A stretch of 63,436 nt of DNA from Alphaproteobacteria bacterium (GTDB lineage: Bacteria > Pseudomonadota > Alphaproteobacteria > JAQWUY01), in NCBI GenBank assembly GCA_049615605.1, contig JBMZFW010000001.1, positions 1 to 63,436 on the forward strand, read 5' to 3'. The notes beneath the pieces are model-generated. The model had not been told where the DNA came from and searched no databases. It was given only the letters and a program-made list of their open reading frames with translations. The position numbers were made by a program, and so were the translations under genes. Positions 2,812-54,232 of the stretch are shown here, in pieces (positions within the stretch are counted from its first letter, which is position 1; each line of letters opens with the position of its first letter).

Positions 2812-4125
2812 ACCAGCCTTCCAAGTTTTATATGCAAGAACTGTTTTTGCACCAATTGACATAAATGGTTCTGGGAATAACTTGCTTGGCTGGTCTTGAT
2901 TTAATAATCCATCAATAAATTCATTTTTATGACCAGATAAGTATTCTGCCATTGTTATACCTTGGGCTGTCCCTTTTGCTAAACCAAGACCATTTTGCAC
3001 CGATGCTGTGTATACATTTTCTGAAACTTCGCCAAATACACTTACATGATTACGCGATAAACAAAGATTACCACCCCAAGTGTATTCAAGTTCCATTCCC
3101 TTAAACATTGGAAACCTTAAATCAAAGGCTTGTCTATGCAATCGTAAATGTTTATCAATTTGATTTTGCTTAACATCAAGGTTTGGGCTGTAAATTGCTT
3201 GGTTGCGAACCAATATGCGACCATCACGGGTTTTTCGCATACTTGAACCCAATGGATCCGCTGGTGTTAACGACCACGCTTCAACCCCACCAAGTGTTTT
3301 TAATTCTTTGTCTGTTAACTGTCTAGTCATTGAACCAGTTAAGACAATATTCATCAATCTGTTCTTTTTATAACCAAATGATTCTAAGTGACCATTCGTT
3401 GTTAATATGATTTTCCCCGCACTTACAGAACCATTTTCTGTTTTTACCATTGGATTTTTACCGTCTTCAAAGGCAACAACAGATGTATTTTCAAATAACT
3501 TAACATTCTTTGGTAAGTTGTCCGCCATTATCATATGATATTTTGCTGGCTGTAATATTGGGCAATGGGGCGTTTTAATTCCCATAGTATAATAATCTAT
3601 ACCAAGGTGCTTTTTCATATCTGTGGCATCAAGCACATCGTATTTTTCACCAATTGCATCAAGACCAGATGTATATGTTTTTAAATCATTTTCCCCGTCA
3701 CTACCTGCGGCGGCGTGGTATTTACCATCAATTGAAAATGCAACCTTATCCATCTTAAATTGTTTTGCCTTTTTTGTGGCAAAGGCAATGGCATAACGAT
3801 TAAATTTTATTTCGGCTAAGTCCGTATCATAACCAGATGAATATGAATCAGATGATAAATTATGTGGTAAATCAATCATAAAGCCAGAATTACGACCACA
3901 AGCCCCAAAACCAATAACCAATGATTCCAATAATACGATGGAAGCTTTTGGATTTAATTCCGCCAATCTGTGTGCGGTTGCAAGCCCCGAAACACCAGCA
4001 CCAACAATTACATAATCAGCGGTAATGTTTGATTTTAAAGCAGGCTTAGGTTTTCGTTTGTATGATGTTTCAAACCAACCAGAACCTGGTAAATCTTTTG
4101 GGAATCTAGATACTTGTTTAATCAT
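2800..4125 (-). CDS. FAD-dependent oxidoreductase (DadA/PuuB-like amine or imino-acid oxidase/dehydrogenase)
   Basis: Listed ORF, 441 aa. N-terminal dinucleotide fold VIVGAGVSGLATA. Overlaps the upstream ALDH stop by 8 nt (ATGATTAA). Confidence 0.8.
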   Translation of the reverse strand: MIKQVSRFPKDLPGSGWFETSYKRKPKPALKSNITADYVIVGAGVSGLATAHRLAELNPKASIVLLESLVIGFGACGRNSGFMIDLPHNLSSDSYSSGYDTDLAEIKFNRYAIAFATKKAKQFKMDKVAFSIDGKYHAAAGSDGENDLKTYTSGLDAIGEKYDVLDATDMKKHLGIDYYTMGIKTPHCPILQPAKYHMIMADNLPKNVKLFENTSVVAFEDGKNPMVKTENGSVSAGKIILTTNGHLESFGYKKNRLMNIVLTGSMTRQLTDKELKTLGGVEAWSLTPADPLGSSMRKTRDGRILVRNQAIYSPNLDVKQNQIDKHLRLHRQAFDLRFPMFKGMELEYTWGGNLCLSRNHVSVFGEVSENVYTASVQNGLGLAKGTAQGITMAEYLSGHKNEFIDGLLNQDQPSKLFPEPFMSIGAKTVLAYKTWKAGKDL

Positions 4126-33312: not shown

Positions 33313-34350
33313 TTATGGGAAGTTTGGTTGTTGTTCTAAACCAGTTGTTTCTTCAAGTTCAAACATAATATTCATATTTTGAATTGCTTGACCAGACGAA
33401 CCTTTAACCAAGTTATCAATCGCACACATAACGATTGAACGGTTTGGAATACGATCTTCTTTCGCACCAATTACCGCAAGGTTTGAACCCTTTACCATAG
33501 AAGTCTTTGGCAGACCATCAATAAACCTTACAAATTTTTCACCTTTGTATGTATCAATCAATGCCTTTTCTAAGTCAGCGTGGCTTACGCCATCGTTTCT
33601 TTTGACATAGATTGTCACAAGTTCCCCACGGTTTAATGGGACAAGGTGTGGTGTAAAGTTTACAATAACATTACTACCAAATCTTTTTGATAATTCTTGT
33701 TCAATTTCTGGGGCGTGTCTATGACTTGCAACACCATAAGGGTTCATTTGTTCAGAAAGTTCACAGAATAAAGTACCCTGTTTTACCCCACGACCCGCAC
33801 CTGACACACCAGATTTTGCGTCAATAATAATATCTTCGCCAGAAATGATATTGTTTTTTGCAAGCGGAATTAATGATAATAATGTAGCCGTTGGATAACA
33901 ACCAGGACAAGCAACAACCCTTGCACCTTTTACATTATCCCTTGCGTGTTCAGTTAAACCATATACAGCTTCAGCTTGTACATCGGTTGCTGTATGAGCT
34001 CTGTCATACCATTGTTCATAAGTTTTTGTATCTTCAATACGAAAATCAGCCGATAAATCAACAACCTTAACATTGGTTGGGATTTGTTTAACCAAGTCTT
34101 GGCTATGCCCGTGTGGTAAACCACAGAACACAACATCACACTTTGAAAAGTCTGCATCTTCGTTGCTTGTTGTCTTTGGCAGGTTTAAATGAGAAAGGTG
34201 TGGATAAATATCCCCGTATTCCTTACCCGCATTTGAACCAGCCGTTAATACAGTGATTTCAGTGTTTGGGTGAACACTTAATAAACGAACCAAGTCCGCA
34301 CCTGTATAACCAGATGCACCCAAGATACCAACTTTAATCTTTTTAGACAT
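33313..34350 (-). CDS. argC: N-acetyl-gamma-glutamyl-phosphate reductase
   Basis: Listed ORF, 345 aa. GASGYTG fold and catalytic Cys context ACPGCYPT. Confidence 0.95.
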   Translation of the reverse strand: MSKKIKVGILGASGYTGADLVRLLSVHPNTEITVLTAGSNAGKEYGDIYPHLSHLNLPKTTSNEDADFSKCDVVFCGLPHGHSQDLVKQIPTNVKVVDLSADFRIEDTKTYEQWYDRAHTATDVQAEAVYGLTEHARDNVKGARVVACPGCYPTATLLSLIPLAKNNIISGEDIIIDAKSGVSGAGRGVKQGTLFCELSEQMNPYGVASHRHAPEIEQELSKRFGSNVIVNFTPHLVPLNRGELVTIYVKRNDGVSHADLEKALIDTYKGEKFVRFIDGLPKTSMVKGSNLAVIGAKEDRIPNRSIVMCAIDNLVKGSSGQAIQNMNIMFELEETTGLEQQPNFP

Positions 34351-34421: not shown

Positions 34422-34476
34422 TTGACTTATAAATAGAACAGATGTAGAACATAGTATATAGAACAAAAACAGAACA
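34422..34476 (+). promoter_or_regulatory. Promoter overlaid by four phased (T/C)AGAACA direct repeats, i.e. two GAAC-N7-GAAC boxes
   Basis: The -35 is TTGACT at 34422-34427. After 17 nt comes TAGAAC at 34445-34450 as a putative -10. GAAC-N7-GAAC occurs at 34436-34450 and 34461-34475. The repeats start at 34434, 34445, 34459 and 34470. Confidence 0.55.
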
Positions 34477-34500: not shown

Positions 34501-34671
34501 ATGAAAATACGATATGAAGTAATTGGTCTAGTAATAATGTTTATTGCGGTGTTTTTAGCATCTGTGTCAATTGGTGTAATCATTGATGATATGGTTGTTG
34601 CCAGTATGCCTATTTTATTATTCTGGCTTTATGTAATGAACAATACTTTTAAAAATATGGAAGAGTTTTAA
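34501..34671 (+). CDS. Unannotated micro-ORF: 56-aa hydrophobic peptide with two predicted membrane segments
   Basis: ATG is 9 nt after GAAAGG. Translation: MKIRYEVIGLVIMFIAVFLASVSIGVIIDDMVVASMPILLFWLYVMNNTFKNMEEF. It falls below the ORF-track length cutoff. No family recognised. Confidence 0.45.
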   Translation: MKIRYEVIGLVIMFIAVFLASVSIGVIIDDMVVASMPILLFWLYVMNNTFKNMEEF

Positions 34672-34694
34672 TTTAAATAAAGGAGTCTATGGAT

Positions 34695-34784
34695 ATGAGT
34701 AAAATTTTCACAACACAAAATATTCACGAATTTAATACAGAACAAGGTGTGGTTATCCACTGTCCTTGGGTATTTGATGAATAA
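34695..34784 (+). CDS. Unannotated micro-ORF: 29-aa peptide (31 aa if started at ATG 34689)
   Basis: AAGGAG at 34680-34685 lies 9 nt before ATG 34695. Translation: MSKIFTTQNIHEFNTEQGVVIHCPWVFDE. No family recognised. Confidence 0.35.
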   Translation: MSKIFTTQNIHEFNTEQGVVIHCPWVFDE

Positions 34785-34824: not shown

Positions 34825-34864
34825 AAAAAAGGCGGTGTGTTTTAAAACACCCGCCTATTTATTT
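34825..34864. terminator. Bidirectional intrinsic terminator
   Basis: GGCGGTGTGTTTT / AAAACACCCGCC stem with one bulge. It is flanked by A6 upstream and TATTTATTT downstream, so a T-run follows on both strands. Confidence 0.7.
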
Positions 34865-34912: not shown

Positions 34913-34943
34913 GTTTTAATTCGGTTAGAATCAAAAAAGCCAA
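34913..34943. repeat. 31-nt terminator-associated module, copy 1
   Basis: GTTTTAATTCGGTTAGAATCAAAAAAGCCAA matches 41214-41244 at 28 of 31 positions. The three mismatches are contiguous. Confidence 0.7.
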
Positions 34944-34960
34944 CCCATTCGGGTTGGCTT
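34933..34960 (-). terminator. Intrinsic terminator after rpsI
   Basis: AGCCAACCC-ATTC-GGGTTGGCT stem. On the minus strand it is followed by T6. It lies 33 nt after the rpsI stop. Confidence 0.8.
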
Positions 34961-34992
34961 TTCTTTTTGGTGTAAACCAGTTAAAACGAATA

Positions 34993-35472
34993 TTAACGTT
35001 TTGAGAACTGGAATGAACGACGAGCTTTCGCGCGACCGTATTTCTTTCTTTCAACCACACGGGCGTCACGTGTAAGGAAACCACCTGATTTCAATACTGG
35101 ACGAAGTGTTGGTTCAAAGTTTACTAATGCTCTTGAAATACCGTGTTGGATTGCACCGGCTTGACCTGAAAGACCACCACCTTTTGCTGTACATACAACA
35201 TCAAATTGACCCGCTCTGTCAGATTTTTCAAATGGTTGGTTAAGAACCATTCTTAATACTGGGCGACCAAAGTATTTTTCAATTTCTTTGCCGTTTACGA
35301 TTACTTTACCAGAACCTGGCTTAATCCATACACGCGCAACAGATTCTTTACGACGACCCGTTGCATACGCACGACCCTGTTCGTCAAGTTTCTGTACCGC
35401 AGGAGTAGCAGTTTCAACAGCTTCTGATTTTACTTCGTTTAAGTCCGCTAATGTTTTTTTATCTTCTGTCAT
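34993..35472 (-). CDS. rpsI: 30S ribosomal protein S9
   Basis: Listed ORF, 159 aa. C-terminal ...[17 protein letters not shown]. Confidence 0.97.
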
Positions 35473-41823: not shown

Positions 41824-41996
41824 TATTTTTTCCTTACTTTCAAACTGTTATTATTAATATTATTTTTTGCAAATAAAACTTTAACAGGTTTTAACAAAAC
41901 TTTAAACAAAAAAATATATTTATTTTATCTTAACAACGACACATATATGTGGTACAATTTCCAATTCGTAATAATAAAAATAAAAGGCAAATAATA

Positions 41997-51647: not shown

Positions 51648-52928
51648 TTAATCTTTCTTGATTACAGTTTTACCACCCATATATGGTTGTAATGCGTCTG
51701 GAACTGTAATTGAACCATCGGCATTTTGATAATTTTCCATTACTGCAATTAATGTACGACCAACCGCAAGACCAGAACCATTTAACGTGTGAACGAATTC
51801 CGTTCCTTTTTCGCCTTTTTTACGGTATCTGCCCTTCATACGACGGGCTTGGAAATCACCACAAGTTGAACAAGATGAAATTTCACGATATGTGTCTTGT
51901 CCTGGAACCCATACTTCAATATCATAAGTGCGTCTTGCACCGAAACCAGTATCGCCTGTACATAATTTAACCACACGGTATGGAAGTTTTAATTTTTTAA
52001 GGATATTTTCCGCACAACCAGTCATTCTTTCCAATTCTTCGTCTGATTTATCAGGTTCAACAATTGAAACCATTTCAACCTTATAAAACTGGTGTTGTCT
52101 TAACATACCCCTTGTATCACGACCCGCTGAACCAGCTTCACTGCGGAAACATAATGTCCACGCCGTCATTCGCTTTGGTAATTCAGATTGTTCAAAGATA
52201 GTATCATTTGCAAAATTCGTTAATGTTACTTCCGATGTTGGAATAAGGTAATGGTCAGCCGTTGTTTTAAATAAATCTTCTTCAAACTTTGGTAATTGAC
52301 CTGTTCCCATTAAAGCGTCTTGCTTAACAAGAACTGGTGTTTGATATTCCGTTAAACCGTGTTCTGTTGTATGGGTATCAAGCATTAATGTTGCAAGCGC
52401 CCTTTCCATTTGTGCAAGTTCTTTGTTTAATGTAACAAACCTTGAACCAGAAAGTTTTGCCGAATATTCAAAATCCATCATACCAAGATTTTCACCCAGT
52501 TCCCAATGTTCCTTTGCTTCAAAATCAAAGCTTGGAATATCGCCCACTGTACGAAGAAGTTCATTATCTTCTTCATCTGCACCTTCTGGAATATCAGGAT
52601 ACATAATGTTTGGCAGTGTTGATAATTGATATGTTAATTTTTCAGATAATTCACGCTCTTTATTTTCAAGACCTTGTAATTCATCTTTCATATCGGCAAC
52701 TTCTTGCATAATTTTTTCTGCATCAGCGTCTTGACCATTTGCCTTCATTACACCAATTTCTTTTGACTTGGCATTACGGGTTGCTTGTAATTCTTGCATT
52801 TCCGTTTGCGTATCACGGCGTTCTTTATCCAATTCCAAGATGGCTGGGCTTTGCTTATCAAGACCACGGCGTGCCATTTCATTGTCAAATTGTTCAGGGT
52901 TTTCACGAATAAACTTCAAGTCGTGCAT
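51648..52928 (-). CDS. serS: Serine--tRNA ligase
   Basis: Listed ORF, 426 aa. N-terminal coiled coil and class II motifs. Confidence 0.96.
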
Positions 52929-54067: not shown

Positions 54068-54232
54068 TTAATCTTTTTTAGATTTTTTAGAGTCGTCTTT
54101 TACGTTCTTTTTGAATTCTTTTAAGCCTTTGCCAAAATCACCCATAATGCGTGATAATTTACCGCCACCGCCAAATAAAACTAAAACGATAACTGCAACG
54201 ATTAACCAGTGCCAAATACTAAATGCGCCCAT
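54068..54232 (-). CDS. tatA: Twin-arginine translocase subunit TatA (54 aa, below the ORF-track cutoff)
   Basis: Translated by hand: [58 protein letters not shown] lies 7 nt upstream. Stop is 8 nt before the tatB ATG. Confidence 0.9.

Follow-up and report, generated by a model that had tools for sequence, protein, structure and literature searches.

A conserved pair of LexA-type operator sequences on the predicted promoter of a micro-protein operon between rpsI and argC in marine Alphaproteobacteria

Between the genes rpsI and argC of an uncultured alphaproteobacterium, a predicted promoter that drives two previously unannotated micro-protein genes carries a real pair of repressor-type operators that is conserved across related lineages. 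Each operator is an exact match to the direct repeat that is bound by LexA in this bacterial class, and the pair is probably LexA-controlled, forming an SOS promoter analogous to that of Caulobacter sidA. From these correspondences we infer LexA as the binder, expression that would be inducible by DNA damage, and the roles suggested below for the two micro-proteins. While the type of operator is a textbook one, the target genes are new.

The promoter and its gene neighbourhood

The stretch of DNA that was analysed (‘the window’, 63,436 nucleotides in length) is a contig of an NCBI MAG that carries the name Alphaproteobacteria bacterium. It has a G+C content of ~36%, bears locus tags of the series ACPG8V_, and displays a gene content typical of its class, including TimA/Tim44, FxsA, gyrA, ssb and uvrA in divergent orientation, and argC behind rplM-rpsI. 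The NCBI name and this content, in particular TimA and the ssb-uvrA-gyrA and rplM-rpsI-argC synteny, place the window in the class whose LexA binds GTTC-N7-GTTC. At its far left end, a 363-residue open reading frame (160-1251) aligns with the trimethylamine-corrinoid methyltransferase model over the C-terminal two-thirds of that model only, at 218 bits versus a cutoff of 525, and probably encodes a related enzyme of the MttB superfamily, members of which are common in marine alphaproteobacteria.

The interval between argC and rpsI contains, on its plus strand, a promoter, two short open reading frames (ORF1 and ORF2) and two hairpin terminators, arranged as follows:

33313-34350, minus strand: argC
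34422-34427, plus strand: -35 hexamer TTGACT, inside a conserved CTTGnnTT, read from the sequence
34436-34450: box 1, GAACAGATGTAGAAC, an exact GAAC-N7-GAAC (GTTCTACATCTGTTC on the minus strand), overlapping the promoter spacer and the -10
34445-34450, plus strand: putative -10 hexamer TAGAAC, doubling as the second half of box 1
34461-34475: box 2, GAACAAAAACAGAAC, an exact GAAC-N7-GAAC (GTTCTGTTTTTGTTC on the minus strand), the top matrix match of the 63-kb window
34501-34671, plus strand: ORF1, 56 amino acids, ACPG8V_00180, annotated as hypothetical at NCBI
34695-34784, plus strand: ORF2, a soluble micro-protein of 29 amino acids, with an alternative start at 34689, preceded by AAGGAG at 34680-34685
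34831-34864, plus strand: hairpin GGCGGTGTG...CACCCGCC followed by a T-rich tract, read from the sequence
34935-34972: strong hairpin terminator of 12 pairs, separating the cassette from the convergent rpsI, from a terminator scan
34993-35472, minus strand: rpsI

The first of the two hairpins likely ends the micro-ORF transcript; the terminator scan assigns it to the opposite strand.

Both boxes are built from copies of a short repeat, with TAGAACA starting at 34434, 34445 and 34459 and CAGAACA at 34470, which corresponds to start-to-start distances of 11, 14 and 11 nt. The original prediction had described four such (T/C)AGAACA repeats, their spacings, the TTGACT hexamer and both GAAC-N7-GAAC boxes, and this description is correct to the base; the 17 nt that it placed between TTGACT and TAGAAC are likewise exact (34428-34444). 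The CTTG and the TT of the -35 region are unchanged in eight of eight related promoters. The assignment of TAGAAC as the -10 hexamer of the ORF1 promoter is less direct: by E. coli standards it is a weak match, a simple sigma-70 scan did not report it as a -10, and the equivalent hexamer in two related contigs (L196 and L200) is TATAGA. Both forms resemble the -10 of the TANAWC type that has been described in Caulobacter. Two further promoter readings were rejected by eye, in each case because the second element is missing: one by EcfG/sigma-E (GGAAC-N16-CGTT) and one by RpoH (CTTG-N17-CYTAT).

Relative to this promoter, which is predicted rather than mapped and from which the relative positions of the boxes follow, box 2 spans roughly +4 to +18 of the transcript, and the start codon of ORF1 lies 25 nt past its end. 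Both boxes are thus situated downstream of a conserved -35 and over the -10 and predicted start, which is the geometry of a repressor; with box 1 over the spacer and -10 and box 2 over the transcript start, two bound repressor dimers would shut the promoter.

The repeat cluster far exceeds chance. AGAACA occurs 52 times in the window, both strands counted, and the Poisson expectation is ~3e-5 per window for four copies inside 41 nt of one strand and ~8e-4 for two GAAC-N7-GAAC boxes inside 40 nt; across 60 first-order Markov simulations, the largest cluster was never above two. The sole further exact GAAC-N7-GAAC of the window, at 51701, is inside a coding region, and intergenic matches with one mismatch are found only at or beside tRNA genes, plus one at 54104. 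The earlier claim that the motif is missing from the other intergenic spacers therefore holds, the extra exact match being coding and the others being near-matches.

Conservation of the operators among marine relatives

A scan of GTDB species genomes with argC gave a best match only 54% identical, indicating that no close relative is present among those genomes. A large protein collection contained argC homologues 68-82% identical, from marine metagenomes that include Tara Oceans, and the corresponding contigs were fetched. The cassette of promoter and micro-ORFs is found between rpsI and argC in L193 and L203 (argC in the 82% class), L196 (72%), L200 (73%), L201/L202 (71%), and L194 and L204 (73%). 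Three contigs lack it: in L195 and L197, argC follows directly upon rpsI, and in L198 the gene ahead of argC is hemB. Among the long contigs of the clade, ENA ERZ25073830 contig_1 (1.84 Mb) carries the boxes and ENA ERZ26858540 ctg224779 (2.97 Mb) is without the cassette; contigs of 1.79 and 1.56 Mb encode close argC homologues, and the 1.79-Mb one also encodes an ORF1 homologue (P0124). The promoter sequences of five representatives are:

window: cTTGACTtataaatAGAACAgatgtAGAACAtagtatatAGAACAaaaacAGAACA
L193: cTTGACTttacaatAGAACAtatgtAGAACAttatatatAGAACAaaattAGAACA
L196: cTTGCGTttacttttgAGAACAtatatAGAACAtatataAGAACAaaaatAGAACA
L200: cTTGCCTtttcttttcAGAACAtatatAGAACAtacataAGAACAaaaatGGAACG
L201: cTTGCTTtttaataAGAACAtatgtAGAACAtatacatAGGAACAaaaaaAGAACG

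All four GAAC cores are unchanged in six lineages (the window, L193, L203, L196, L200 and L201/L202), the argC genes of which are 71-82% identical, so that the check proposed in the original prediction, conservation of the repeats in the argC-rpsI spacer of relatives, comes out positive. The bases beside and between the cores vary, with AGAACA replaced by GGAACG, GAGAACA or AAGAACA, and the AT-rich stretch towards argC is not alignable across the relatives. The combination of unchanged cores and drifting flanks points to sites that are under selection, with selection acting on the GAAC cores themselves. In ~110 kb of sequence from the clade, exact GAAC-N7-GAAC occurrences correspond to these box pairs only, bar one coding match.

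The spacing of the repeats is informative in its own right. Within each box the spacer is N7 throughout, and the offset from box to box is either 25 or 23 nt, corresponding to repeat spacings of 11/14/11 nt in the window versus 11/12/11 nt in L196 and L200. Counted from the first base of the -35, box 2 starts at a distance of 39 nt in six of six lineages, and it is box 1 that shifts, by 2 nt: where box 1 is moved away from the -35 by 2 nt, the space between the boxes shrinks by as much, and box 2 stays fixed. This pattern (constant N7, an offset of 25 or 23 nt, and a box 2 anchored to the -35) argues for two dimer sites and not for one phased array.

Since the repeats also lie 84-126 nt upstream of the argC ATG in the window, and adjoin a minus-strand sequence that weakly resembles a promoter (TTTATA at 34433-34428 and AATAAT at 34411-34406), they might instead be activator or repressor sites of the divergent argC, serving arginine control, with the micro-ORFs incidental. 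How far the boxes lie from the argC ATG, however, varies widely across the lineages (~84 to ~130 nt), in contrast to the fixed distance to the -35 of ORF1, and no box is found 5' of argC in L195, L197 and L198, where argC directly follows rpsI or hemB. These two observations indicate that the boxes are anchored to the promoter of ORF1 and not to argC; in addition, the GAAC repeat motif does not, to our knowledge, resemble an ARG box. Arginine control is accordingly a very improbable explanation.

We regard it as similarly far-fetched that the repeats bind no protein at all, and represent either the relic of a local 25-nt duplication or elements that act at the level of RNA. When metagenome contigs were scanned for the four-repeat pattern, nearly all of the matches listed were simple 11-nt tandem repeats, which indicates that such patterns can come from slippage; a relic of this kind would nonetheless have to be reconciled with cores that are strictly kept in six diverged lineages, in which the sequence between them changes. 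The same conservation bears upon an action in RNA, for which box 2 would be suitably placed in the predicted 5' UTR and AGAACA would provide two A-R-N triplets, an Hfq-type motif. Box 1, however, is upstream of the predicted transcript start and so cannot act as RNA, and a search of the rpsI-argC spacer against Rfam gave nothing above threshold and no known sRNA family.

Among the remaining matches listed in the metagenome scan, the one non-repetitive four-repeat match (L110) adjoins an integrase-like gene in an unrelated element. A few non-satellite (A/T)AGAACA arrays with 11-nt spacing (in L082, L161, L184 and L186; for example L184:2325-2400) were observed near promoter-like TTGACT or TTGACA sequences.

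In the sub-lineage formed by L194 and L204, the operator pair is replaced by a single imperfect site (GACA-N6-GAAC in L194 and GAAC-N6-GAAC in L204), situated between a TTGCAT -35 and a near-consensus -10, TATAAT or TATTGT (L194:3843-3930 and L204:1300-1389). This single site could reflect decay of the operator or a change of regulation.

The rplM-rpsI-argC neighbourhood is an insertion hotspot in this clade, with the micro-ORF cassette itself present or absent between close relatives. A GmrSD-type restriction gene is found upstream of rplM in L195 (676-2754) and L197 (756-2840), a PDDEXK/YhcG-like protein is encoded between rpsI and ORF1 in L196 (2586-3395), and a DUF2971 protein is encoded upstream of ORF1 in L201 (1-978). 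In L193, two 55-nt inverted repeats that are 89% complementary (3409-3463 and 3801-3855) flank the ORF1-ORF2 coding block, one of them in the 5' UTR right after box 2 and the other right after ORF2. The same 5' UTR insertion is found in L203 and not in the window, and a core similar to these repeats, GCGGTTGCAACCGC, is present in the rpsI-argC spacer of L195. The inverted repeats of L193 could be REP- or MITE-like elements, or could form a long-range stem in the mRNA.

Correspondence to LexA operators

In Caulobacter and its alphaproteobacterial relatives, the operator recognised by LexA is the direct repeat GTTC-N7-GTTC (PMC9578287; PMC12700426), which is the motif that both boxes present on the minus strand. 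For a quantitative comparison, a weight matrix was built from 32 boxes in Caulobacter promoters that are LexA-bound and LexA- and RecA-dependent, as validated by ChIP-seq and RNA-seq (PMC12700426, S6 Table), with the base composition of the window as background. By this measure, box 2 scores 17.8 bits and ranks first in the 63 kb, and box 1 scores 15.4 bits and ranks third, the second-ranked site being located just downstream of tRNA-Cys. Both values fall within the range of the training sites themselves (12.7-20.1 bits). In every relative, the two boxes rank first and second, at 15.5-19.2 bits, with the next site at 10 bits or less. All of the boxes also follow Caulobacter in the bases next to the repeats, the first GTTC being followed by T or C and the second being preceded by T.

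The boxes therefore share with the SOS boxes described in Rhodobacter, Rhizobium/Sinorhizobium and Caulobacter (i) the tetranucleotide direct repeat GTTC-N7-GTTC; (ii) its 7-nt spacer; (iii) the flanking bases; and (iv) the range of scores, and they overlap a predicted promoter. They differ from the general alphaproteobacterial set in the genes that carry them, uvrA and ssb being without a box here, a feature that would be expected of such a regulon and is not strictly defining. The spacer between ssb and uvrA (41824-41990), the only canonical SOS promoter region of the window, contains neither GAAC nor GTTC, its best matrix score being -0.7, and the regions upstream of gyrA and recJ in the window are also without sites. 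Since uvrA is LexA-regulated in Caulobacter (PMC12700426), the regulon would be narrower than in Caulobacter if LexA acts here. The ssb-uvrA spacer does contain TTAAC at 41881 and 41891 and TTAA at 41902, with a TTAA-N7-TTAA at 41891-41905 that corresponds to a CtrA-type box; with 12 occurrences in the window versus 9 expected, this motif is not enriched, and its occurrence in the spacer may thus be due to chance.

The seven spacer positions of the boxes add little to their scores, as random AT-rich spacers do equally well in 2% to 23% of cases, and the fit to the LexA matrix thus rests mainly on the eight core bases and their spacing. Both this property and the boxless ssb-uvrA spacer would also be accommodated if the pair were a genuine operator of ORF1 that is bound by some other protein, either a head-to-tail dimer of the OmpR/PhoB type or a lineage-specific repressor, in response to a signal other than DNA damage. 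Winged-helix response regulators bind direct repeats 11 nt apart, and the periodicity inside each pair, with its 7-nt repeats, is like that of Pho boxes and other OmpR-type arrays. The original prediction had offered this phasing as its alternative, which the comparison with relatives disfavours: the two pairs are set 14 or 12 nt apart, out of phase with the 11 nt that are constant within them, so that the continuous 10-11-nt phase of such arrays is absent. Moreover, the sites are downstream of a good and conserved -35 and over the -10 and start, where activator-type regulators are normally not found, instead of being at or upstream of the -35 or replacing it, and the conserved bases are not TGTCA or GTTACA. 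For any binder other than LexA, it would also need to be explained why the bases that do not vary coincide exactly with the GTTC/GAAC tetranucleotides in the LexA consensus of the class. The open reading frames scanned in the 63-kb window include no transcription factor gene from which a local regulator might come, and include neither lexA nor recA. We judge a binder of this other kind to be unlikely, and LexA to be the better candidate.

Micro-proteins, known SOS systems and a proposed mechanism

The original prediction had called the promoter an orphan, with only two micro-ORFs behind it, and it is this label that does not survive the comparison with relatives; its reading of LexA-type boxes is otherwise strengthened by the two operators, the repressor geometry, the sigma-70-like promoter, the relatives and the matrix scores. 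ORF1 has syntenic homologues of similar length in L193, L203, L196, L200, L201, L194 and L204, which have a Shine-Dalgarno sequence in common, display conservative substitutions, and leave F14, P37, F41 and W42 invariant; in the L194/L204 sub-lineage the variant is longer, at 72-83 amino acids. ORF2 is called as a 29-amino-acid gene on a Logan contig, and its core, I(F/Y)T(T/A)QNIHE..N...GV..H.PWVF, is common to the window, L193 and L203 and missing from the other sub-lineages compared. By these patterns of conservation, ORF1 and ORF2 qualify as real, previously unrecognised protein-coding genes, and the promoter is thus not an orphan.

The family of ORF1 is small. It comprises nine proteins in a collection of 5.8e9, eight of them on rpsI-argC loci or on contigs with close argC homologues, and seven representatives in a collection of 1.84e9, of which three are additional to the nine. 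In both collections the homologues are short (53-92 amino acids) and are named only hypothetical or are unnamed. A single-sequence homology search with ORF1 found only itself, the relatives having come through synteny; a Pfam search with ORF1 and ORF2 gave no significant family, and a tblastn search of ORF1 against phages returned nothing significant. An AlphaFold2 model of ORF1, calculated with a nine-sequence alignment, is a helical hairpin (pLDDT 90) with helices at residues 2-28, 31-34 and 36-54, and the hydropathy of the sequence agrees with a membrane hairpin. On the strength of this model, ORF1 is predicted to be a two-helix membrane hairpin protein.

In Alphaproteobacteria, there is precedent for an SOS promoter at which two operators precede the gene of a very small membrane protein. 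Small membrane proteins are typical SOS targets, as exemplified by Caulobacter sidA, and a defining trait of SidA-like inhibitors is that their expression blocks division through FtsW/FtsI/FtsN. The sidA gene (ccna_02004) encodes an inner-membrane division inhibitor of 29 amino acids, and its promoter is the only one with two LexA boxes in the S6 Table (49 and 15 nt from the coding sequence), produces one of the highest LexA ChIP peaks, and is an early and strongly induced SOS promoter (PMC12700426). The promoter described here resembles it in bacterial class, in operator type, in the presence of two boxes near the start codon and in a tiny product predicted for the inner membrane; as modelled, ORF1 is a very small membrane protein located directly behind an SOS-type operator. 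The two systems also differ in several respects: (i) the boxes are 34 nt apart in Caulobacter and 23-25 nt apart here; (ii) SidA has 29 amino acids and one transmembrane segment, in contrast to the 56 amino acids and predicted two-helix hairpin of ORF1; (iii) a second micro-ORF follows ORF1; and (iv) LexA binding and induction by damage are proven for sidA and are predicted by analogy for ORF1. Neither the Pfam search nor the homologue searches of the two protein collections revealed homology of ORF1 to SidA, DidA or other known inhibitors.

Small membrane proteins under SOS control, lineage-restricted and poorly conserved, also occur outside of this class, as TisB and DinQ in E. coli and YneA and SosA in Gram-positive bacteria. 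ORF1 shares with them a small hydrophobic protein situated directly under a LexA-type operator, which in the present case is predicted, and differs from them in that the cassette is not beside lexA and no sequence similarity was found. With regard to type I toxin-antitoxin systems of the TisB/IstR kind, a hydrophobic micro-protein is present; the RNA search recovered no known sRNA family, and a novel antisense RNA is possible.

These comparisons suggest a mechanism in which the four repeats would constitute two independent operators of the alphaproteobacterial LexA type, read as GTTC-N7-GTTC on the opposite strand, and in which a sigma-70-type promoter would drive a transcript of two genes, one for an inner-membrane hairpin (ORF1) and the other for a peptide of ~29 amino acids (ORF2). 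Following DNA damage, RecA-stimulated self-cleavage of the presumed LexA would free the promoter and allow the micro-proteins to be made, whereupon ORF1, by analogy with characterised systems, might either block cell division in the manner of SidA or act on the membrane in the manner of TisB and DinQ. More tentatively, and with considerable reservation, ORF1 and ORF2 may be envisaged as a lineage-restricted, damage-induced module, a small insert in the rpsI-argC interval, in which the hairpin arrests division or depolarises the membrane and the 29-amino-acid soluble partner modulates it; the module would then constitute a new SOS effector family that has no sequence relationship to SidA, SulA, YneA or TisB.

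SOS division inhibitors and membrane toxins are notorious for their lack of conservation, and are known from only a handful of cultured models. A double SOS-type operator in front of an unannotated pair of micro-proteins therefore provides a concrete candidate for such an effector in uncultured marine alphaproteobacteria. If the binder should be a protein other than LexA, the site would still be a well-defined operator under strong selection, for which a regulator is needed. In either case, the locus illustrates that seemingly orphan promoters, with only micro-ORFs behind them, can mark real genes that are missed by homology.
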